IMG/VR virus record: IMGVR_UViG_3300028595_000001
Span: 1 to 59,893 of that record
Origin: a virus
Taxonomy: Duplodnaviria > Caudoviricetes
Length of the DNA stretch: 59,893 bases
Reading direction: 5' to 3' (one strand)
In this document: in pieces, positions 3,493-18,422 of the stretch
How positions within the stretch are numbered: the first letter of the stretch is position 1
Layout: every line of letters starts with the position of its first letter
The notes under the pieces: generated by a model
Databases searched by the model: none
Told to the model about the DNA's origin: nothing
The model's input: only the letters and a program-made list of their open reading frames with translations
Translations under genes and position numbers: made by a program

Positions 3493-5505
3493 ATGGGCGA
3501 TTCAATTTATTCTCCGGTCATGCAGGTTTTCGATAGCGACGGCAACCCAGGCGTTGGGTATAAACTTTATACTTATGAATCTGGTACAACAACTCCGAAG
3601 GTTGTTTATACTGATGAAGCGTGTACTGTGCCAGCCGCCAACCCCGTTGTCTTTGATTCAAGGGGCGAAGCAACAATTTATTACGCCGACGAATACAAGT
3701 TCGTTCTTAAAACTGACGAAGATGTTACGGTTTGGACTGTTGATGGAGTTGGGACCGCAGCAACATCATCAAGTTCAACGACATACTCATATTATCCCGA
3801 CCCAGACGAAACAGACCAGGGCGTAACCGCTTCTGGAACTGGGGATACTATTTATGATATTATAACAGAGGTTGGCACATCTGAGGTCGCCAACATTGTT
3901 TTACGACACGACGGAAGTGCAAACACCACCGATTATACGTTAGACACAAATATTGACCTAACATCATACCCGCTGGTCTTCATAGAAATACAGCCCGGAG
4001 CAAGACTTGTAAGGACTACCGGAGATGAACTCTTAACCGTAGATACGCCAAACAACATTGTAGCGTCTAAAAACCAACAAATTACTGCGGTGAGCATGAT
4101 TCGTTTTAATGGATCTGGTTCTGTGCCTGTTGAATGGTTCGGAAGTGGGACAAGCGCCACTCAATTTGCGGTTAGTTCTTTGTTGGGCGGCGGAACAGTA
4201 GAATTAAACAATGGAACATACACATCTGTTAAGGTTACAATTACAACAGACATAACATTGTTAATAAAACAAGCAGCGACTTTAAAACTTGCCGATAGTA
4301 CGGACGACTCGCTTGTTTACGTTAATGGGGCGAACAGGTTTGATTTAATAGGAACTGGAATTATAGACGGAAACAAGGATAATAATAGCACATCAAACGG
4401 AACCATTGAAGTTAATGCAACCGATATAGTCAACATCGGATATGTGACGATAAAAGATTCTGATGGAGATGCTGTAAAAATTACGACTGCTACGAATGGA
4501 ACGATAACGCCGATCATTACGGATGCTGATGGGTCAGGTGTTTATACGGTTGATTGCGATAATTTAGACATTAGGCCAGACATTGACACATGCGAACACA
4601 ACGGGGTTATAGTTGTACCAAGCACGAAAAATTGTAGCAATATTAGGGTCGGAGGATACATTAAAAGTCCCGCTCAGACCGGAACGCCGTATGTCGGAGT
4701 TTATTTTAACTCAGGCGACACATATTACGTTGAGAACAGCTTTATAAGTTCTATTGTCGAAGACGCTGGTTATATAGGAATTTATCCTGGTGGAGACTTC
4801 AACACCATTACAGACGGAGCCAGAGTAAATGGTGCTGGGAAAGTAACAAGCGCCAGCGGATACGGAATATGGGTGCATGACTCAGCCCACATTACCATTG
4901 GTTCTGTAGTTGTCAGCAACGGGGAAAACACTGGAATTTTGGTCAACAAAGCCCATAATGTTACCATAACGGGAGCATTGTCATACCGGAACGCTAACGC
5001 TGGTTTTTGGTTTGATTATGACACAAACGCAACTGGAAGACACCAAACTACAGATACCAACAAGGCCACCACATGCGTTGGTTGCATGGCTATCGAAAAC
5101 AGCTATGGAAGCGTCGGAACATGGCCTGGATTTTATATAGATGGATATAGAAATTTGACCCTAAGCGGTTGCCAAGCGCATGATTACCAAGGAACTCAAT
5201 CACAGGGCCGTGGCGTTGTAGCGGCCACCAATGCAACCACAGCTAACATATCTATAATCGGGTGCGATTTTTCAGACAATGTTTCAGGGAACGGGATAAA
5301 CGTGGCAAGGGGCTATTTGTCGCAGTGTTTTGGGAATACACCAAATGACGGAACCTTTATTACTTTGGATGATGATGACTGGGACGATCAACCGGTTATA
5401 ATCGGAAGTTATTACCTATGGGTTGATAGTACGGGCGATCTAAGAATCAAAAGCAGTGCTCCTTCAAGCGATACCGATGGGACAATTGTTGGGACACAAT
5501 CATAA
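3493..5505 (+). CDS. Tailspike with virion-binding N-terminus and right-handed beta-helix
   Basis: N-terminal YTYESGTTTPK...NPVVFDSRG; beta-helix-like repeats; C-terminal YLWVDSTGDLRIKSSAPSSDTDG motif. Confidence 0.8.
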   Translation: MGDSIYSPVMQVFDSDGNPGVGYKLYTYESGTTTPKVVYTDEACTVPAANPVVFDSRGEATIYYADEYKFVLKTDEDVTVWTVDGVGTAATSSSSTTYSYYPDPDETDQGVTASGTGDTIYDIITEVGTSEVANIVLRHDGSANTTDYTLDTNIDLTSYPLVFIEIQPGARLVRTTGDELLTVDTPNNIVASKNQQITAVSMIRFNGSGSVPVEWFGSGTSATQFAVSSLLGGGTVELNNGTYTSVKVTITTDITLLIKQAATLKLADSTDDSLVYVNGANRFDLIGTGIIDGNKDNNSTSNGTIEVNATDIVNIGYVTIKDSDGDAVKITTATNGTITPIITDADGSGVYTVDCDNLDIRPDIDTCEHNGVIVVPSTKNCSNIRVGGYIKSPAQTGTPYVGVYFNSGDTYYVENSFISSIVEDAGYIGIYPGGDFNTITDGARVNGAGKVTSASGYGIWVHDSAHITIGSVVVSNGENTGILVNKAHNVTITGALSYRNANAGFWFDYDTNATGRHQTTDTNKATTCVGCMAIENSYGSVGTWPGFYIDGYRNLTLSGCQAHDYQGTQSQGRGVVAATNATTANISIIGCDFSDNVSGNGINVARGYLSQCFGNTPNDGTFITLDDDDWDDQPVIIGSYYLWVDSTGDLRIKSSAPSSDTDGTIVGTQS

Positions 5506-9767: not shown

Positions 9768-11195
9768 ATGGTAAATTACAACGCTTTCAACGTAGACCCG
9801 AACCAATACCAGCAGCAGGCAATGGGAAACTTTTCCAATGCTATGCAGATTCGCAACCAAAATCAACAGGCGGCGGACAGGAACGCTTTGTATAAGCAGC
9901 AACAGGCTGACCTACAGGAGCAACGGAAGGCGCAGAACGCTTTTGAGGCGCAACGGGTTGGAGAGTTGCAAAAAAGAACTGTTTTACAACAGCAACAGCT
10001 TGAACAAGAAAAGAAACAAGATCAGTACCGTAGGTGGGGCAAAGGGATAGAAATAGCTTTGCAACAAAAAACGACAGATGGGGCCAATGCTGCATTGAGA
10101 AACATCGCTCCTGTTCTTGGCTTAGAAGACGTAGAAAGTTTTTCATTTACAAATGTAAACCCAACACAATCAACGGGCGTTATTAAAACATCACAGGGCG
10201 ATGTTGAGATAACAGCGCCGACCGAAAATTTTTTTCCTGTAGTCGAAAAGATGACCACCGATCCGACGTTGGCAAACAATCCTGAATTGATGGGTAAGTT
10301 TTTGGCGGACAATGGCGCTTCGTTGAAACCATACACAGCAAAAGAAAAAGACGATGGATTTACGTTGGGTGAGGGACAGATAAGATATGATAAAAACGGA
10401 AACATTATAGCAAAAGGAACTCCCAAAAAAGACAAAGAAGAATCAACAAAGCCTATTTACGATAGGAATGTAGAGTTGGCCCTTGCTGCAAACAATATCC
10501 AAAAAACCAAAACTGGTGGTTACGAACAATTGGGATTTAACATAGACGGAGAAGAAACGTGGGTTCCAGCGTCAAAAGAAAACGCGCAATGGGCTGCAAA
10601 AACAGAAAGAGAACAAAGATATTATACATCCCAGGTTTTAAAATTTAAGAAAGAACTTGAAAAAAAATACAATGATACAATTAGTTATGAAGACGCTGGC
10701 TATGAATTTGAACAAAGAAGGGCAGAAGAAAGAGCAAAAAGAGCGGCTCGCGATGCTGCCTTTAAAAAAAGTTCGGCGGACGAACAAAGGTTTAAGCGTA
10801 TAGACAGGGGCGGTCCTCAAAAAAACAAACAAAAATTTGACCCAGAAGGAAACGGTTACGACATGGAGTCTGCGAAAGCAGCCGGTCTTAAGCCAGATTC
10901 TACGGGCCACTGGCCGTCAAGAGATCCAAAAACAGGGCTTCTTTTAAAGGGTCGTGGCCATAAAACGTGGAAAAAAACAATAGCTGCTGAAAAAGCTGCT
11001 GGATACGAAGTATATAAAGGGGATGATGGTAGATACTATTCTCGTAAAAAGAAAAAAGATATGTGGGAAAACTACCAAGAAGAGAGCAAAAATGCCTTTA
11101 AAGGTGCGGGTTTGCCTGAATCTTTAATGCAAGACCTCCCCAAAAAGAATGTAATGTCAGGAATGCCAAAACCGTACAACGCGAGATTTCGATGA
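9768..11195 (+). CDS. DNA ejection protein (gp20-like position)
   Basis: Gln-rich coiled N-terminus; FTLGEGQIRYD motif; lies between gp7-like and giant protein. Confidence 0.65.
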   Translation: MVNYNAFNVDPNQYQQQAMGNFSNAMQIRNQNQQAADRNALYKQQQADLQEQRKAQNAFEAQRVGELQKRTVLQQQQLEQEKKQDQYRRWGKGIEIALQQKTTDGANAALRNIAPVLGLEDVESFSFTNVNPTQSTGVIKTSQGDVEITAPTENFFPVVEKMTTDPTLANNPELMGKFLADNGASLKPYTAKEKDDGFTLGEGQIRYDKNGNIIAKGTPKKDKEESTKPIYDRNVELALAANNIQKTKTGGYEQLGFNIDGEETWVPASKENAQWAAKTEREQRYYTSQVLKFKKELEKKYNDTISYEDAGYEFEQRRAEERAKRAARDAAFKKSSADEQRFKRIDRGGPQKNKQKFDPEGNGYDMESAKAAGLKPDSTGHWPSRDPKTGLLLKGRGHKTWKKTIAAEKAAGYEVYKGDDGRYYSRKKKKDMWENYQEESKNAFKGAGLPESLMQDLPKKNVMSGMPKPYNARFR

Positions 11196-14100
11196 CTAAT
11201 TGGTCAAAAACATTTGATTATTTAGACAGGAAGGAAATTTTTCCGCTTCCTGAACAACCGTTAGTAAACCAGCCGAAGCCAGTTGAACCAGACGACAAGT
11301 CTGAGTTTGGCAAAGGTTGGAAAGCCGGATTGTATCAAACCGCTGCCGTTGCTCCTGCTGTTGTTTCAATGGCGGGAAAAGCTGTTGGTGCTGATTCCGT
11401 TGCTGAGTGGGGCGCAGAAAAAGCTGGCGGTTTGATGGAAAAAGCGTCTGAGTATGAGGGTGAAACTTCTTTTGAAGAACTAATTGACAGCCCAACATTA
11501 GAGGGTGCAACCAATTGGTTTTTGCACACGGCAGGAACGGTTGCTCCATCTATGATTATTGGCATGACGGGCGCTGGCATTGGCGCAAAAGCGTTGGGTG
11601 GTTTGGCCTTAAAGAAAATGTCAAAATCTTTAATTGCCAACAAAGCCAAGGGACTTGTGGCTGAGGGGGTTGCGAAAGACGTTGCTGTCAAGCTGGCAGC
11701 AAAACAGCTTGCTTCAAAAGCCGTTAAATACGGCGCTGCGGCTGGAATTGTTGCAACAACGGCACCACAAGAAGCCGCCCACAATTTTATGGCTGACGTT
11801 GAGCAGCACGGTATTGAGAACGCTTCTCCAGGCAAGGCAGCATTAACAGGAACAGCCGCTGGCCTTGTGGAGCTTGGTTTTGGTGGTGGTCATTTACGCC
11901 TTATTAATAAGGTGTTGGGGGTTAAGGCCGGAAAGGTTGCTACCAAAGAACTGAGTAAGCTTGCCAAAATAGGCAAAGTTGGTGATGAATACCGTCTTGT
12001 TCGGATGCTAAAAGAAGCCGTTATTCAGGGTGGCGGCGAAGGATTACAGGAACTAACCCAAGAAGAACTATCTATCCTGAACGAAATCTGGACCGGCGAA
12101 GACCAATCCTTTTTTGAAAAAAAGAACCTGCTGCGCGCTGGCGAATCGTTTGCTGCTGGTGCTGTCATGGGTGTTCCTACTGGTGGTGTGACGGGTGTGT
12201 TCAGCAAAGCTTCGGTTGATAATAGCGGTGATACCACAGGAGAGGGCGATACAGGCACAAAAGTTAAGGGGCGCACCATTGACCTTGGAGACATCCCCGG
12301 CCCTGACGAATACGCCCGTATGGAAGCGTCCATGGGTGAAGACAGGGGGACAAGGACACTTGATGTTTATAAACAATCTCGCGGGAAAACCGTACCGAAC
12401 AGAAACCCAATTCAAGCAGAAATAGAACGACGCAAAGAAGAACAATATTGGAAGGACGAAGAAACAAAAATTAAATCCCAGCGCAGAGATGCTGGAATGG
12501 ATAGAAAAGACCCCAAACAGCAAGCATTGGAGGAAGCATGGCAAAAGGACAATGTAACGGAACCGGTCAAGGCAACGGAAATGGCTGCAAGAACCCAAGC
12601 CCCTGCTGCGGAAGCAACCGCAAAGGTAACGGAAATTGCGGAAAGCCCCAAGGAAAGGGCCGCAATAAGTGACAAAACGCCCCGTAAAGCAAAAGAAGGT
12701 CAAGGCGTTAAGAAACCACTGGTACAAAAAGTCGCACCGGAAAAGGCAGCGGAGGTAAAAGTTGGAGGTGTCGCCGTTACGTATAACCCCACAATTTCAA
12801 GGGTTGACAAAAACCGAGGGAATGGCGCGGCGGGTGTTGTTTTAATGGAAGAATCAGGACTCTCTACAGAACTTCCTGTGAGCAAGGGTGACGATATATT
12901 ATATAGGGGCATGTCTAAGGCTGAATATGAAAACGTAATTGAAACAGGGAAAATAGCGTCACACGGAAAAGGTGACTTTGTTCACGTGGGACACGAAGGT
13001 CAGACATCTTTCGTGGATGACCCCGTTGTCGCTGGCATGTTCGCTCATGGAGGTAGCCCCCGTGCTGGTGGAAAACCGTCTGTCAATGAACCAGCATATA
13101 TAATCGGCGTGAAGACAAATGCGCCTAAAACTAAAAGGCCATACCAGTATGGAGTCAAGGAAGCCACGGAATACGGTGTTGCTGGAGAAATTAGTGCTTC
13201 GGAGATTGTGAGCGTTACTGAATCAAACATGTATGCGATTGCTGATAACATTACTATCGACATGCCGATGGCAGAGCGCATCGGCATCGGGTACAGGGCA
13301 TTAAAACACAAGATCGCATCGAAAGAAGGTCAAGGCGTTAAGAAACCGTTGGTACAAAGTGTCTCATATAAAGCGTCAAAGAAAGTAGATTCAGCCGCTG
13401 ATGTCTTTAACACGGGTTCCTCGTCTTTTGGAGGCGGAATAAATAGCGTTACTTCTAGTGTCAAGAAGCTTGGCAATATTAGAAATAGACTCGCCTCTCT
13501 TAATCATAGTTTTAGCGACCTTGATGTCAAAACTAAGAGGAATGTGCAGTCTATTATGGTCGATGCGCTTCATCAGCCTGAGGTTAGAAATGCGGTTATC
13601 AAGTCTATCCCCGTTAATGTGGTGGACGACTTCATCTCTTTTGCCGGAATTTTAAATGGACCTGCCGATATGTTCTTCCATAACGGCGATGTGCTCCTTG
13701 ACCCTAACATTATTAATACAAAAAACTCTATACCCACTGGAGTTTATAGTGCCAGTTCTTTGCTGGATGGCATAGCACGCCTGACTACATCACAAAAAGA
13801 GACGGAAGTAAAGACCAAAACACAAAAAGCCACACCCGAAAAGGCAGCGAAGATAGGTGTTGACAAAGCGTGGGTTAAATTAGCAGAAAAACACGGAATA
13901 AAAAAACCATCTGATGCAGAAATAAAAAGACGCAACGACGAACTGATTGAAAAAAAGCGTGAGTTTGAGAGGAAACGGACAAAAGCTGCACCGAAGGCGA
14001 CAAAGACCAAACTCGCTACCGACCGCCGTCAACACCCATTAGACCCCGGCGGCGCACAGTACACCGATAAGAAACGCCGCAACCCACTGTTTCCAAGAAG

Positions 14101-17100
14101 CAAGAAGCCTGACCGCCGTCAAAACATTACTATGGCTAAACAGGTAGCGGCAGAGTTCAAGCGCATGGGTTTCGGTTCACGGGTGAACGGTGACAGCGTG
14201 CGTGTGTCAACCCCCACCGGAAACATTGCCATAAACATCGCTGACAGCGTGGTGGGAGACGATAGCGCAACGATAAGGATGGCATACGGTAAGGAAGCCA
14301 AGCCGGGGGAGAAAGTCGTAGGATCGTACTTTGACGGTGAAATTAAGCTGAAGCGCAACAAGGCTGACAGGTTTATTCTTAGCCACGAACTTTTTCACCA
14401 CATGAAAGCTGCTGGCCTGTTCACGGCGGCTGAAGAAAAAATCCTGTCACGCAAGGGGAGTGAGGAAGCACAGGCAAGATGGGTTGAGCGTCAGTTGAGA
14501 AACCGTGGCAAACAGAGCAGTGTGGTAAGAAAACTAATTAAGAAAATAGCCGACTTTTTGGACGCCTTGGCTAACGTGTTTGTGCGAACTGAGCGAGGGG
14601 TTTTGCGGGATGTGGAGTCGGGCAGAATCTTAAAAAGGAGCGACCCCAAGAATATCAGCGGCCCTCTTACGAAGAACGACATCAGGAAGCCTTCTGCCAA
14701 AGGGGTTGTGCCACCCCCTGCGAATAAAAGCCTCTCTAATGGAATTGGGGTGGCGGTTAAAAATCTTTCCAAGTCTTTTGTACCCGATACCGGCGTCCTT
14801 AAGCCTTTTAGCAGTCTTGATGTCGTAGGCCAAAGGGATGTGCTTGCGATGATGCGCACTATCCTTAAGGACAGAAAGGTTCTCGATTCTGTTGTCCGCC
14901 TTGTCCCCATTGATGTGGTGAACATGCTCAGTGGGAAGAAGATTTCTCCCAAGGTTTTGCTCGACAACCCATCTATGCTCGTAGACTTGCTTCCCACCGA
15001 CCCTAACGACCTTATACCCAGCGGCGTTCGTGCCGTTGATATACTTGCCCCTGTTAGCGCAATCAACGCTGCAAAAGTAGTTTTTGGAACTTCTGTGGTA
15101 CATGTATCGTCTAAAGAAATTCTTTCCGCAATTGGAACAGACAAGATCGGGCATGACAGCCTCCTTTCAATTGTCGATAAAATACCACACCCAAATGAAT
15201 ATGTCAACCAACTTTTTAACGAGGATGCCGCTGAGATTAACGAGCATATTCAGTACGCCACGGCGGTAGAGGGGGAACAATACACATTACCCTTGACCAA
15301 CATGGATAAAGCCAAGTCTGTTTTTAATCGCAAGTTCAACGATGCAATGTACTGGATTGTTGATAAAAATTATTCCATCGACGTAACACAGAAAAAACTT
15401 GGCGAACTGACAGATAAAATCAACGTGTTCTTGAAGGAAACGCAACGACCGAAGATTACCGCTGCGAAAGTAGAAAAGTTCTGGGAAGACGAGGTTCAGC
15501 CGCTTATTAAAAAGATGGCAAGGTACGGCGTAAACGTGGAAGACCTTGAACTGTATTCCCACGCCAAGCACGTTATTGGTGACAACCTCAACCAACTTCT
15601 TAGGGAGCGCAACGCTAAAATTCAGGTTGAAGAAATCATTGGCGTTCTCGATAAAAAAGAATCTAAAGCCGTTGAAGCATCCGTTAAGGGCGTGAAGGCA
15701 CCCGCCGATTGGTTGAAGCATCTTGAAGAAATATTTGACGCACACAAAAACAACGAAGACGTTCAGATGCTTAAAGCGAAATGGGATAAGTTCGCTGAAA
15801 AGCCATCTGGAATGACAGACAAAGATGCTAAAGCTGTTCTAAAACAATATGAGGGCGACGAAAAAATAGAAGAACTCCGCAAGATGATGCTGAACATCAA
15901 CAAGGGAAGACTTGACCTTCTTTTCGATGCGGGGCAAATCCCCAAAGAAGAATATGACAGAATTGTAAAAAAATACAAGTATTACGTTCCCCTGTATCGT
16001 GAAGGCTACGACGACTCTATGTTCGGAACGACAAGGGGGCTGAAACCTTCTGGGCGACAGGTAAAAGTTCGTGGCGGTTCTACAAGGAACGTGGTCAATA
16101 TCTTTGCGAACACGGTTGCCAATTATGAGAAGGCAATCAACATATCTGAAAAGGCTGTGTCTCAAAGGGCGTTGTACGGGCTTGCCAAGGCCAACATTGG
16201 TTCTGAAACGCTCACCATAAGACCCGTTAAAAAGTCTCCCCGCACGGACAAGAATGGAAATATTAGAATGTATCCAAACTTGTTTGAAGTCGAGCCAAAC
16301 GAGATGCGGATTATGGTAGACGGCAAGCAGTATCTTATAGAGGTAAACAAAGACGACAAAGACGCAATGTTGATGATGCGGACGCTCAAGGCAGATGACG
16401 GCATGAACGGTCCAATTGTCAACTTTCTTGCCAGAATAAACAGGTTCCTTGCGAGAATAAATACTACATGGTCGCCTGAGTTTATTATATCCAACTTCTT
16501 GCGAGACTTTGGAACGGCGAACATCAATATAAGGGACACCGGGGTAAAAGGGGAAAATATGTTCTCCGGTGCCAGAAAAGCCATTGTTGCGATACTTGCG
16601 GTAGAACGTGGTAAACGAAAAGGCACAGACCTTGAAAAGATGTATGATCGTTTTAAAGCGGCTGGTGGGAAGATCGGTTGGGCAGATGTTCACGGTTCGG
16701 TTGAAAATCTATCCAAAAAAATAACCAGAGAAATTGAGATGCAGTCGGGTAAGCGTCCGACAAGGGCTGCGATTAAAGGGTGGCTGGAATTAATCGACAA
16801 CGCGAATACGGCAATTGAAAACGGTATTAGGCTTCACACGTTCAAGCTTGCTACAGAACAGGGGAAGACTGACGAACGTGCAGCGCAGATAGCGTCAGAC
16901 CTAACGGTAGACTTTACCAAGAAGGGTGCGGCTGGACCCGTTATAAACTCTTTATATTTGTTCGCCAATGCTGGTATACAGGGTTCCTATCGTATCTTAA
17001 GAGCAAGCATCAAGTCTCGTTCGGTTCAGAAAGTGCTGGCGGGTATTGTCGGAACAAGTTTTGTCGTTGGAATTTTAAACTCAATGGCGGGTGAAGACGA

Positions 17101-18019
17101 AGACGGGGAAGACTATTTCAACAAAATTGACGACTTCGTGCGCGAACGGAATATGATTTTTATGATCCCAGGCACGAAAGGAAAATACGCCAAAATACCA
17201 GCACCTTGGGGATACAATTTGTTTTGGAATATTGGATCTGAACTTTCTCGCGCAGTTACAAAAGAAAATTTCAGTGCCATGTCAAGTGCCGGAAGGCTGA
17301 TATCTATTGCGGCTGGTGCGTTTAACCCCGTTCAGTCGGGGACGTTATTGCAAACACTCTCACCGACCGTGGCAGATCCGTTCGTCATGGTTTCCGAAAA
17401 CAAGAATTGGTTTGGTGGCGATTTAATGCCAGCAGTTAATAAGTTTGAGAGGGTTCCTACACCGGATTCGCAAAGATATTGGAAGTCGGCAAGTTCTGGT
17501 TCAAAATGGGTTGCTGGAGCATTAAACAAACTAACCCGTGGCGACAAAATCAAGTCTGGCGCAATAGACGTATCACCAGAAACGCTTGATCTTATCTTGG
17601 ACACCGCTGGTGGGTCAGCACTTCGGTTTTTCAAAGATTCAATCGGTGTTCCTCTCGCCAAAATTCGTGGTGAAGAAATAGAAGCGCATAAAATACCATT
17701 TTACAGAAGGGTTGCTGGGGATCAACCAGCGTGGGCGAACTCAAGAATATATTATGAAAACATTGAGAATGTTTTAATCGCGAAGGAAAGGCTGAAAGCC
17801 TACAAGGGAACTGTCCAATACAAGAATGTGTTGATTGCCACGAAAGACCTGAGAAAGATGATGCCCCTTGCTGAACAAAGCGAAAAGAGACTCAGGAAGT
17901 TAAGAAAATCATTGAAGGCGGCTGAAGTATCTGGCGATAAAGACCGCGTTGAAACAATCAAAAAAAGAATGAACGCTGTATATAACCGATTTAACAAGTT
18001 TTACAACAAGGAGAAATGA
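11192..18019 (+). CDS. Giant injected polyvalent protein (gp16-like position): ART-like domain, HExxH metallopeptidase-like domain, LPD38-like C-terminus
   Basis: 2275 aa open frame; EGLQELTQE ejection-protein motif; LYRG..TSF..E ART pattern; SHELFHH; LTVDFTKKG...LYLFANAGIQG, KIPAPWGY, NKNWFG. Confidence 0.85.
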   Translation: MTNWSKTFDYLDRKEIFPLPEQPLVNQPKPVEPDDKSEFGKGWKAGLYQTAAVAPAVVSMAGKAVGADSVAEWGAEKAGGLMEKASEYEGETSFEELIDSPTLEGATNWFLHTAGTVAPSMIIGMTGAGIGAKALGGLALKKMSKSLIANKAKGLVAEGVAKDVAVKLAAKQLASKAVKYGAAAGIVATTAPQEAAHNFMADVEQHGIENASPGKAALTGTAAGLVELGFGGGHLRLINKVLGVKAGKVATKELSKLAKIGKVGDEYRLVRMLKEAVIQGGGEGLQELTQEELSILNEIWTGEDQSFFEKKNLLRAGESFAAGAVMGVPTGGVTGVFSKASVDNSGDTTGEGDTGTKVKGRTIDLGDIPGPDEYARMEASMGEDRGTRTLDVYKQSRGKTVPNRNPIQAEIERRKEEQYWKDEETKIKSQRRDAGMDRKDPKQQALEEAWQKDNVTEPVKATEMAARTQAPAAEATAKVTEIAESPKERAAISDKTPRKAKEGQGVKKPLVQKVAPEKAAEVKVGGVAVTYNPTISRVDKNRGNGAAGVVLMEESGLSTELPVSKGDDILYRGMSKAEYENVIETGKIASHGKGDFVHVGHEGQTSFVDDPVVAGMFAHGGSPRAGGKPSVNEPAYIIGVKTNAPKTKRPYQYGVKEATEYGVAGEISASEIVSVTESNMYAIADNITIDMPMAERIGIGYRALKHKIASKEGQGVKKPLVQSVSYKASKKVDSAADVFNTGSSSFGGGINSVTSSVKKLGNIRNRLASLNHSFSDLDVKTKRNVQSIMVDALHQPEVRNAVIKSIPVNVVDDFISFAGILNGPADMFFHNGDVLLDPNIINTKNSIPTGVYSASSLLDGIARLTTSQKETEVKTKTQKATPEKAAKIGVDKAWVKLAEKHGIKKPSDAEIKRRNDELIEKKREFERKRTKAAPKATKTKLATDRRQHPLDPGGAQYTDKKRRNPLFPRSKKPDRRQNITMAKQVAAEFKRMGFGSRVNGDSVRVSTPTGNIAINIADSVVGDDSATIRMAYGKEAKPGEKVVGSYFDGEIKLKRNKADRFILSHELFHHMKAAGLFTAAEEKILSRKGSEEAQARWVERQLRNRGKQSSVVRKLIKKIADFLDALANVFVRTERGVLRDVESGRILKRSDPKNISGPLTKNDIRKPSAKGVVPPPANKSLSNGIGVAVKNLSKSFVPDTGVLKPFSSLDVVGQRDVLAMMRTILKDRKVLDSVVRLVPIDVVNMLSGKKISPKVLLDNPSMLVDLLPTDPNDLIPSGVRAVDILAPVSAINAAKVVFGTSVVHVSSKEILSAIGTDKIGHDSLLSIVDKIPHPNEYVNQLFNEDAAEINEHIQYATAVEGEQYTLPLTNMDKAKSVFNRKFNDAMYWIVDKNYSIDVTQKKLGELTDKINVFLKETQRPKITAAKVEKFWEDEVQPLIKKMARYGVNVEDLELYSHAKHVIGDNLNQLLRERNAKIQVEEIIGVLDKKESKAVEASVKGVKAPADWLKHLEEIFDAHKNNEDVQMLKAKWDKFAEKPSGMTDKDAKAVLKQYEGDEKIEELRKMMLNINKGRLDLLFDAGQIPKEEYDRIVKKYKYYVPLYREGYDDSMFGTTRGLKPSGRQVKVRGGSTRNVVNIFANTVANYEKAINISEKAVSQRALYGLAKANIGSETLTIRPVKKSPRTDKNGNIRMYPNLFEVEPNEMRIMVDGKQYLIEVNKDDKDAMLMMRTLKADDGMNGPIVNFLARINRFLARINTTWSPEFIISNFLRDFGTANINIRDTGVKGENMFSGARKAIVAILAVERGKRKGTDLEKMYDRFKAAGGKIGWADVHGSVENLSKKITREIEMQSGKRPTRAAIKGWLELIDNANTAIENGIRLHTFKLATEQGKTDERAAQIASDLTVDFTKKGAAGPVINSLYLFANAGIQGSYRILRASIKSRSVQKVLAGIVGTSFVVGILNSMAGEDEDGEDYFNKIDDFVRERNMIFMIPGTKGKYAKIPAPWGYNLFWNIGSELSRAVTKENFSAMSSAGRLISIAAGAFNPVQSGTLLQTLSPTVADPFVMVSENKNWFGGDLMPAVNKFERVPTPDSQRYWKSASSGSKWVAGALNKLTRGDKIKSGAIDVSPETLDLILDTAGGSALRFFKDSIGVPLAKIRGEEIEAHKIPFYRRVAGDQPAWANSRIYYENIENVLIAKERLKAYKGTVQYKNVLIATKDLRKMMPLAEQSEKRLRKLRKSLKAAEVSGDKDRVETIKKRMNAVYNRFNKFYNKEK
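13391..13789 (-). pseudogene. Decayed antisense HNH endonuclease nested in giant ORF
   Basis: Minus-strand translation CSQAC...GYRVF...KEHIAVMEEHIGRSI*NSGKRDEVVHHINGDRLDNRISNL...HIPLSFDIKVAK; internal TAA at 13652-13654; no start codon for the full-length frame (TGA at 13790-13792). Confidence 0.85.
14630..15154 (-). CDS. HNH homing endonuclease nested antisense in giant ORF
   Basis: CSNC/FCSVDC zinc motif, YEHRWVVEQNLGRNL, HVHHINGDKADNRIENL, C-terminal HTH-like segment; own RBS and promoter. Confidence 0.92.
   Translation of the reverse strand: MPDLVCSNCGKNFFRRYMYHRSSKNYFCSVDCANRGKYINGTNAAGYKVVRVGGKQVYEHRWVVEQNLGRNLLPTEHVHHINGDKADNRIENLSVLKDSAHHRKHIPLAYDIKTAKRLKDAGIGYKRLGKIFNRHPNSIREAFIRRGWHNPFGRRLPDVVLRKRAADILGVAPF
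15160..15207 (-). promoter_or_regulatory. Sigma70 promoter plus Shine-Dalgarno for the nested HNH gene
   Basis: Minus strand reads TTGACA-17nt-(TGG)TATTTT ... AAAGGAGG-5nt-ATG. Confidence 0.85.
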
Positions 18020-18020
18020 T

Positions 18021-18422
18021 ATGGCTGGCAGTGCAACAATTGTATCAAACAAACTTAACGGCATGTGGAGAACGATTGTATGGAGATGGACTTCCGATGC
18101 TTCTGGCGATGTCAGTGGCGTAGGTTCTTTGGCCATTCCCGGTGGGTCGGTGAACACGATTCTTTCCGTACCTGATTCTGGTGTTACCCCTGACTTTGAT
18201 CTTGTTATTACTGGAAAAATTTTTCTTGATAACGGCGCAACTGTTTCCGTTGCCGATTTGTTAAATGGTGTCGGTACGGACCTATCCAATTCAACGAATG
18301 GTGAAGCGATAAACGTAAACGTGACCTACCCGCTTCCGTACAATGTTGAAATCGCTCCGGTTATTTCTGGCGCAGGTAGCGCAACATCTGGGTACCTGTT
18401 TTTGTTCATATGGCAAGAATAA
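18021..18422 (+). CDS. Hypothetical virion-associated beta protein
   Basis: AAGGAG RBS; in late operon; WTSDASG motif. Confidence 0.6.
   Translation: MAGSATIVSNKLNGMWRTIVWRWTSDASGDVSGVGSLAIPGGSVNTILSVPDSGVTPDFDLVITGKIFLDNGATVSVADLLNGVGTDLSNSTNGEAINVNVTYPLPYNVEIAPVISGAGSATSGYLFLFIWQE

Follow-up and report, generated by a model that had tools for sequence, protein, structure and literature searches.

Free-standing HNH endonuclease genes of phages, of the I-HmuI and T4 Mob type, pair a nuclease with a DNA-binding tail, carry their own promoter and occur sporadically between genes. Rickettsia palindromic elements are short non-coding repeats that are translated in frame inside host proteins. The ShiLan domain of mycobacteriophage DNA methylases is an unspliced insertion that hides an HNH gene in the third frame of the same strand, the translation of which is unexplained (PMC11855218, Arsenault, Gosselin & Gogarten 2025). 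Some nuclear rDNA group I introns carry antisense endonuclease genes (PMC9548176), and antisense overlapping 'shadow ORFs' (ORF, open reading frame) are known in bacteria and phages (PMC8850804). Here we analyse a complete virus record of 59,893 bp with direct terminal repeats at its ends (IMG/VR record IMGVR_UViG_3300028595_000001; this whole stretch is called the window), in which an HNH_3 endonuclease gene, P0001, lies antisense inside an unbroken 2275-aa ORF encoding a giant polyvalent protein, P0002. We consider it likely that P0001 belongs to a selfish antisense homing cassette which is translated through, unspliced, as part of the giant gene.

The nuclease is homologous to those hidden in the methylases: tblastn matches P0001 to ShiLan (38.6% identity, E 3e-15), Bipolar, Filuzino and others (38-41%, E ~1e-15), and in Bipolar the HNH match starts 761 nt (2 modulo 3) into the methylase coding sequence, on the same strand. 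The premise of the original prediction for this locus, that homing endonucleases spare their hosts only by way of introns, inteins or intergenic sites, is outdated, because an unspliced HNH insertion has been published (PMC11855218).

Anatomy and boundaries of the antisense cassette

All that the original prediction listed from the letters alone holds: a minus-strand ORF with a zinc motif lies wholly within the unbroken giant ORF (coordinates in Table 1), in exact codon-for-codon antisense register. Since 14630 - 11192 = 3438 = 3 × 1146, both strands use the same triplets, and the P0001 stop TAA is the TTA codon of Leu1147 in the host frame. Hidden Markov model searches of both strands returned Pfam HNH_3 (PF13392) on the minus strand (41 bits against a gathering cut-off of 24.8, E 1.4e-10, residues 58-103 of P0001) and LPD38 on the plus strand (E 1.5e-36, in P0002). 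P0001 also matches 14 PHROG families, 13 of them annotated as HNH endonuclease (best 3e-17). The protein comprises an N-terminal zinc ribbon, an HNH core and a helix-turn-helix (HTH)-like tail, and its translation shows CxxC...CxxxC (C6-x2-C9 and C28-x3-C32), YEHRWVVEQNLGR and HHINGDKADNRIENL. H79, H80, N82, N88, N92 and H101 are invariant in seven homologues; the catalytic and zinc-binding roles of individual residues are assignments that we presume. For the tail, P0001 itself gives no Pfam HTH match at E ≤ 0.01; a homologue, L005, scores HTH_7 (E 2.9e-6) over the aligned stretch. A collection of 5.8 billion proteins returned no 100% match to P0001 and only 21 homologues at E ≤ 1e-5, several of the closest on contigs of ~1-1.4 kb; gene callers appear to suppress nested genes of this kind.

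The predicted expression signals are likewise present, with a Shine-Dalgarno sequence close before the ATG and, further upstream, a sigma-70-like promoter with an extended -10 box. The host strand reads this promoter as KIPHPNEYVN, and other giant proteins keep KIPxP(N/S)E in their host-strand reading; TTGnnn-16/17-TATTT(T/C), read by eye, stands upstream of the HNH start in L003-L006 too. At L004-L006 so little separates the promoter from the ATG that a transcript would have almost no leader. As an observation in its own right, three of the six frames over 14639-15214 are without stops, the third being that of a 238-aa TTG-start ORF (14491-15207, minus strand) in a minus frame different from that of the HNH gene.

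The extent of the cassette was defined from relatives of P0002 that were found in the 5.8-billion-protein search and then aligned for junctions. Because conserved flanks bracket it in these alignments, the cassette is taken as 14639-15214, from the HNH stop codon to a few bases past the -35 box. It begins after a conserved ESGRILKR and ends before FNEDAAEINEHIQYAT, the conserved right flank in relatives being ...(F)NEDAAEINEHIQYATAVEGEQ, and the last two P0001 codons and the stop overlie the recipient's L-K-R. Close relatives are polymorphic for its presence at this one site, as homing elements are. P0003, encoded on another contig, matches at 98.7% identity across aa 930-2275, cassette included; in P0004, with flanks 93-95% identical, and in P0009 the same flanks enclose a domain of the ART-PolyVal type; P0005, P0006 and P0007 have 334-614 other residues; and P0008, an empty allele of the kind that the original prediction proposed to seek among LPD38 proteins, has only 16 residues between the same conserved flanks. 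Judged from these alignments, the cassette occupies a module-swap site. At 14619 and 15215, short public contigs from relatives part from the window's sequence; these loose ends lend weak support to the junctions, and the contig diverging at 15215 reads ...KHNYVV and then FNED, like the end of the P0005 module.

The window is a metagenome-assembled virus record, and short contigs from public runs (kept as contigs, with a shared word fraction of 0.05-0.12) skip 14840-15067, which is uninformative either way. An assembly artefact, or a giant ORF that is a dead gene, is scarcely credible all the same: the independent contig encoding P0003 carries the same cassette, the architecture recurs in 15 loci from other samples, and the C-terminal module of P0002 is conserved with hundreds of phages.

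We looked for signs that the segment is removed from the product. As the original prediction had noted by eye, hallmarks of introns and inteins are missing: Rfam gave no match at E ≤ 1 on either strand of 11000-18200, and in P0002 Pfam at E ≤ 0.01 returned only LPD38, a Hint or intein domain being absent. Apart from the HNH ORF with its Shine-Dalgarno sequence and promoter the cassette contains nothing, and there is no room for a group I or group II ribozyme because it spans only the HNH stop to just past the -35 box. Nor can P0001 be part of an intein, because the nuclease is antisense to the host frame. Processing into units has been proposed for polyvalent proteins (PMC5512222), so that post-translational excision is possible; yet removal of the segment by RNA or protein splicing, ribosomal bypass or proteolysis, with the open frame merely incidental, is highly improbable, in view of the foregoing and because an incidental open frame has P ~0.003-0.007 and would have to recur in 15 other loci.

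The conserved C-terminal module with LPD38 lies downstream in frame and can be made only if translation crosses the cassette. Separate initiation of this module was considered and rejected, since no GGAGG-like motif was seen in the 20 nt upstream of any of the five in-frame start candidates in 15208-15500. In the reading we favour, promoter, Shine-Dalgarno sequence and 174-aa ORF would together form a selfish HNH_3 element opposite the giant gene. The codon-for-codon register is the only one that turns the HNH stop into Leu or Ser on the host strand, and host-strand stops would be avoided by never using the synonymous codons TTA, CTA and TCA. The cassette comprises 192 codons, keeps the frame and has no stop on the host strand, so that ribosomes on the giant mRNA would read straight through it, adding a 192-aa insert between an HExxH-containing module and the C-terminal LPD38 module, and no splicing would be needed. 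The endonuclease would be made from its own antisense transcript and would presumably cut cassette-free alleles in co-infecting relatives, whose repair would copy the cassette in. The sequences themselves show the anatomy, the homology, the polymorphism at the site, the recurrence, the avoidance of stops and a decayed copy; we infer antisense transcription, translation of the insert into the virion protein, nuclease activity with its target, and homing.

Recurrence, stop avoidance and selection

The host-strand reading (phmmer query from window 14633-15226, searched against 1.84 billion cluster representatives) matches 182 clusters at E ≤ 1e-3, most of them of giant proteins, with 27 at E ≤ 1e-10 and 10 at E ≤ 1e-30. 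Among 153 fetched proteins with a local phmmer match, 90 have at least 2000 aa, 30 have 1000-1999, 18 have 350-999 and 15 fewer than 350, so that 120 reach 1000 aa or more; the match is internal. At the DNA level, 15 further loci hold a stop-free HNH gene antisense, codon for codon, inside open frames of 667-3504 codons, where the register at L003-L008, L014 and L016 follows from the search mode and the length of the enclosing frame does not. They come from metagenomes (L003-L006 and L008, by a scan with the four-sequence alignment A2), from a contig of a Phycisphaerales metagenome-assembled genome (L016) and from IMG/VR (L014, L017, L026, L028, L029, L030, L033 and L036); a sixteenth, L007, is cut by its contig end. 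All 11 host ORFs of these loci that were scanned with Pfam are polyvalent proteins (with ART-PolyVal, InPase, MuF_C, RadC, LPD1, LPD5, LPD38, LPD39, helicase or methylase modules), and all five scanned HNH ORFs exceed the HNH_3 cut-off.

The wider HNH family provides a natural control. IMG/VR was scanned with an alignment of HNH proteins (A3), which is blind to the other strand, and the best 80 of 312 relatives were classified, the class counts being rows and not independent events, with duplicates (L018 = L004, L019 = L005, L020 = L006, L027 = L014, L038 = L008) and near-duplicates among them. Twelve of the 80 are antisense-embedded in long frames; seven are embedded on the same strand out of frame, the ShiLan type, including the Bipolar and OwlsT2W records; one is in frame in a long ORF; nine are antisense-open over the match only; and 51 are free-standing or other, with antisense stops. 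The last class includes the close relatives L021-L025 (46-52% identity), and at L021, with an HNH gene of 164 codons, the antisense frame is open for only 36 codons. Because free-standing relatives carry antisense stops, the stop-free complement is, as far as the classified sequences go, a property of embedded copies and not of the HNH family. The proposal of an unspliced, tolerated insert of ~190 aa between polyvalent modules, made in the original prediction, is supported by the lack of room for a ribozyme, the negative intron and intein searches, the relatives at the site, the recurrence and the antisense-stop control.

Some individual loci of the family merit mention. At L022 the HNH gene (4890-5486, plus strand, 48% identical) lies antisense between a 1371-codon opposite-strand ORF and smaller ORFs, and the antisense frame is closed across it; this may be an insertion that split or killed its host gene. 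The same-strand out-of-frame loci (L031, L042, L043, L048, L058, L069 and L081) lie in ORFs of 427-699 codons. In Bipolar (L009) and Cylindrospermopsis phage Cr-LKS3 (L010) the host N6_N4 methylase is split into two stretches; if Cr-LKS3, for which the strand only is confirmed, proves to be a further case, the ShiLan-type arrangement would not be confined to mycobacteriophages.

In the codon-for-codon antisense register, TTA, CTA and TCA are the only codons read as stops on the host strand. P0001 has 12 Leu codons (11 of them CTT) and seven Ser codons, and none of these 19 is TTA, CTA or TCA. With genome codon usage, in which 26% of Leu codons are TTA or CTA and 26% of Ser codons are TCA, the chance of this is P = 0.003, and with the usage of the host ORF it is P = 0.007, in both cases before the 1/3 chance for the frame. 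L003-L008 likewise use none of the three codons, with per-locus P values of 0.26, 0.10, 0.019, 0.012 and 0.16 (L007 excluded). The open host frame across the cassette is not due to chance.

Selection was compared between the two strands. Pairwise comparison of eight copies gives a mean identity of 0.50 for the HNH frame and of 0.38 for the host frame. Because the HNH frame is better conserved and the catalytic residues are invariant, the nuclease is, on these alignments, the primary target of selection. Shared synonymous codons are in excess across the HNH region (0.588 versus 0.435 permuted, z 10.9), and single-coding host flanks show the same excess (0.536 versus 0.390 permuted, z 7.9). Differences at minus-strand codon positions 1, 2 and 3 (0.45, 0.325 and 0.54) are suggestive only. 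For the host strand, stop avoidance is all that is demonstrated.

These comparisons bear on the idea that the host-strand reading folds into a helical domain useful in its own right to the polyvalent protein, and that this use maintains the segment while the HNH gene persists or is leaving. AlphaFold2, given eight aligned sequences, predicts an all-helical core at residues 60-150 with predicted local distance difference test (pLDDT) scores of 85-90 (mean 68 overall; predicted template modelling score, pTM, 0.65), the module occurs in the 182 protein clusters above, and a decayed copy described below keeps the host frame open after the death of its HNH gene. We nevertheless judge such a domain unlikely as the reason for the segment, as the HNH frame is the better conserved one, synonymous-site conservation is no higher than in the flanks, none of 65 Foldseek matches against the PDB reaches E ≤ 0.001 (best E 1.6), relatives lack the module at the site it has in the window, and every locus examined has an intact HNH ORF. 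A related possibility, which we put forward tentatively and hold to be rather less than probable, is that an HNH lineage has specialised on giant polyvalent (ejected) proteins by becoming a two-strand cassette, in which one strand would give the nuclease from its own promoter and the other, kept free of stops, would form a compact novel all-helical domain carried by the host protein. If so, the complement of a selfish gene would be a recurrent source of new domains, in more than 100 giant-protein clusters and unseen by gene callers.

The conserved promoter of its own, and HNH ORFs that remain intact at 35-66% identity across many phages, might suit a domesticated phage gene, acting for example in host DNA degradation, packaging or superinfection exclusion, or regulating the giant gene through its antisense transcript, rather than a mobile homing element. 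We think this very unlikely, however. Distribution is patchy among near-identical phages, P0003 having the cassette and P0004 lacking it; the same giant gene contains a decayed paralogue; the clade also has free-standing and same-strand embedded members; P0001 is not beside a terminase; and selfish spread has been reported for the homologous ShiLan domain (PMC11855218). Overprinting of a new antisense gene on the giant gene was also considered and rejected, since P0001 belongs to an old, widespread HNH_3 family and is absent from the alleles of relatives.

Probable insertion history and the host gene

A second, older in-frame insert lies upstream in the same giant gene and contains a decayed antisense HNH copy, found when P0001 was searched by tblastn against the genome. 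The copy shows 39% identity with residues 27-148 of P0001, has a TGA and a TAA within the match, and is without zinc ribbon, start codon and promoter. The insert has split a linker of which an intact copy (KEGQGVKKPLVQKVAPEKAAEV), an internal 'empty site', lies 630 nt upstream; ~13 nt are common to both halves of the split linker. Since the insert has four stops in the HNH register and none in the host frame, the nuclease has decayed and the host frame has remained open, which would be the outcome if selection guards the host frame after fixation of the element. Within the decayed gene, and antisense to the giant gene, a strong promoter-like site, TTGACA-16-TATGAT (11 of 12 positions), is found at 13503-13530 on the minus strand.

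Most close relatives of P0001 lie within an ART-like domain, and L003-L006, L016 and 11 database proteins share a single cassette position there. The flank on the left of this site reads FHG(T/S)PH..DKFS..KIGTGEGAQAYG.G.Y.A...YR..LS and the right flank G.LY.VE..P...E.L.WDKPLSEQ, and the two flank motifs are 200-216 residues apart with the cassette and 109-114 apart in four cassette-free alleles. Both copies in the window sit at other sites, in linkers. P0005 carries an ART-like domain exactly at the site of the window's cassette, and the window keeps a tail, FNEDAAEINEH, that matches the end of the P0005 module; because of these two features, the window copy probably came from a copy in an ART-like domain whose halves were later lost. 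Alternatively, the cassette may have entered the linker directly, as the dead copy suggests.

Several points weigh against a homing cassette with its own expression. Two promoter-like matches in 3 kb compare with 4.0 ± 1.9 in shuffles, which is within chance, and we credit the P0001 promoter because it is conserved in relatives and not because the match beats chance. The sole contig from an RNA library was placed at 14386-14595, outside the HNH gene, and the contigs are strandless. The per-locus P values for stop avoidance in L003-L008 are not independent, as the loci are kin by descent and some duplicate one contig. A permutation-test signal in host-frame identity (z ~16) was rejected as evidence of selection at the amino-acid level on the host strand, because single-coding flanks show an excess of the same sort. 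Finally, the window copy is without the ART-like flanks and its site differs from that of its closest relatives, and arrival by module recombination rather than by endonuclease-driven homing would be equally possible on this comparison.

The host gene has the features of a phage polyvalent protein: P0002 is giant, contains LPD38, has structural neighbours, and has relatives with ART-PolyVal, DUF3990 and RadC. Its aa 1399-2274 match phrog_14770, phrog_616 and phrog_10691, PHROGs of giant phage proteins, and the neighbouring genes match head closure Hc3, tail fibre and a 'DNA ejection' protein (phrog_598). P0002 lies in a structural and ejection gene block, and because of these neighbours 'virion or ejection protein' is a reasonable label for it. 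Among 50,697 phage records, megablast with the giant gene matched none, and scanning IMG/VR for peptide patterns of P0002 brought up no relative; tblastn of P0002 against the phage records gave 356 matches, all below 60% identity and none spanning at least 80% of the query, the alignments being confined to aa 1381-2272 among the 30 matches listed.

Other features of the giant gene are recorded here. An HExxH-like motif, HELFHH (14384-14401, plus strand; aa 1065-1070), lies in the module just upstream of the cassette (aa ~941-1151), which is kept in P0004-P0010, P0013 and P0015 and may be a metallopeptidase candidate, though it is without a Pfam match. A segment of ~200 aa (12692-13366, plus strand; aa ~501-725) is bracketed by two KEGQGVKKPLVQ linker copies 630 nt apart and is absent from P0003, 98.6% identical; it resembles a further module open to swapping, for which the linkers would act as recombination sites. 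A 284-aa antisense ORF in codon-for-codon register (15839-16693, minus strand) lies inside the conserved C-terminal module and belongs to a stop-free antisense run of 289 codons, the longest in the gene.

Table 1. Coordinates of the features in the window
Feature	Coordinates	Strand	Details
HNH_3 endonuclease gene (P0001)	14630..15154	-	174 aa; ATG start; stop included
Shine-Dalgarno sequence AAAGGAGG	15160..15167	-	5 nt before the P0001 ATG
Sigma-70-like promoter, TTGACA-17-TATTTT with TGn	15179..15207	-	10/12 positions; TG present
Whole cassette	14639..15214		576 nt = 192 codons; host aa 1150-1341; 0 host-frame stops
Older in-frame insert	13367..13834		468 nt; 156 codons
Decayed antisense HNH copy	13415..13792	-	tblastn of P0001 on the genome
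Uninterrupted linker copy	12692..12764	+	repeat families D2 and D3
Left half of split linker	13322..13366	+	D2; 89% identical to 12692-12736
Right half of split linker	13822..13862	+	D3; 80% identical to 12724-12764
Polyvalent protein gene (P0002)	11192..18019	+	unbroken ORF
LPD38 domain	17114..17701	+	aa 1975-2170; within the conserved C-terminal module

Comparison with known systems

If the proposed reading is correct, homing endonucleases would have, in addition to introns and inteins, a third means of residing inside an essential gene, namely to be translated through on the other strand. Such an insertion would be cheap because the codon-for-codon register demands the avoidance of only three synonymous codons, and start, stop and promoter all remain the element's own. 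Genes of this kind would be systematically missed by annotation, and a segment of many 'giant phage proteins' would be the mirror image of a nuclease gene and not a designed domain. This bears on the domain annotation of polyvalent proteins, on the origin of new protein sequence and on patterns of presence and absence in phage structural genes. As for the question raised by ShiLan, how hidden nucleases are expressed, a conserved candidate antisense promoter is present here.

We found no description in the literature of an antisense HNH gene read through by its host gene, supplementary tables not being covered. The text of PMC11855218 (its supplementary repository not covered) has no mention of antisense, reverse, opposite, complement or polyvalent, and the available text of the polyvalent-protein survey of Iyer et al. 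2017 (PMC5512222) has no mention of homing, intein, antisense or opposite strand.

Several known systems share part of this arrangement. Like the free-standing HNH endonucleases, P0001 joins a nuclease to a tail, has its own promoter and is sporadic, and free-standing members exist in the same clade (51 of the 80 loci); unlike them, it lies not between genes but inside a coding sequence, without splitting it. As with endonucleases of introns and inteins, the host would be functional despite insertion at a conserved site, and the rDNA cases are also on the opposite strand (PMC9548176), whereas the window's cassette is, in the proposed reading, not removed by RNA or protein splicing and its extra peptide is tolerated. 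With shadow ORFs it has in common that the two strands encode different proteins through one set of triplets, in the -1 register (PMC8850804); however, a shadow ORF is a new ORF overprinted on an old gene, and here an old HNH family has been inserted and the 'new' reading is the host's. The Rickettsia palindromic elements resemble it as selfish DNA tolerated as an in-frame peptide insert, but the window's cassette encodes a nuclease on the other strand.

The window's cassette resembles ShiLan (PMC11855218) in that an unspliced insertion leaves the host frame open and conceals a homologous HNH gene; in both cases no intron or intein is detectable and the distribution among close relatives is patchy. 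The two differ in that (i) the ShiLan HNH occupies an alternate frame of the same strand, whereas that of the window is on the opposite strand in register 0; (ii) the ShiLan HNH has no promoter or ribosome-binding site of its own, whereas that of the window has a promoter and a Shine-Dalgarno sequence; and (iii) the ShiLan host is a non-essential methylase, whereas the host here is a giant LPD38 polyvalent protein of the putative virion type. Read-through in place of splicing is thus an already published principle, as the ShiLan article has it; the antisense codon-for-codon form, the promoter of its own, the link to polyvalent proteins and the breadth of occurrence appear to be new.

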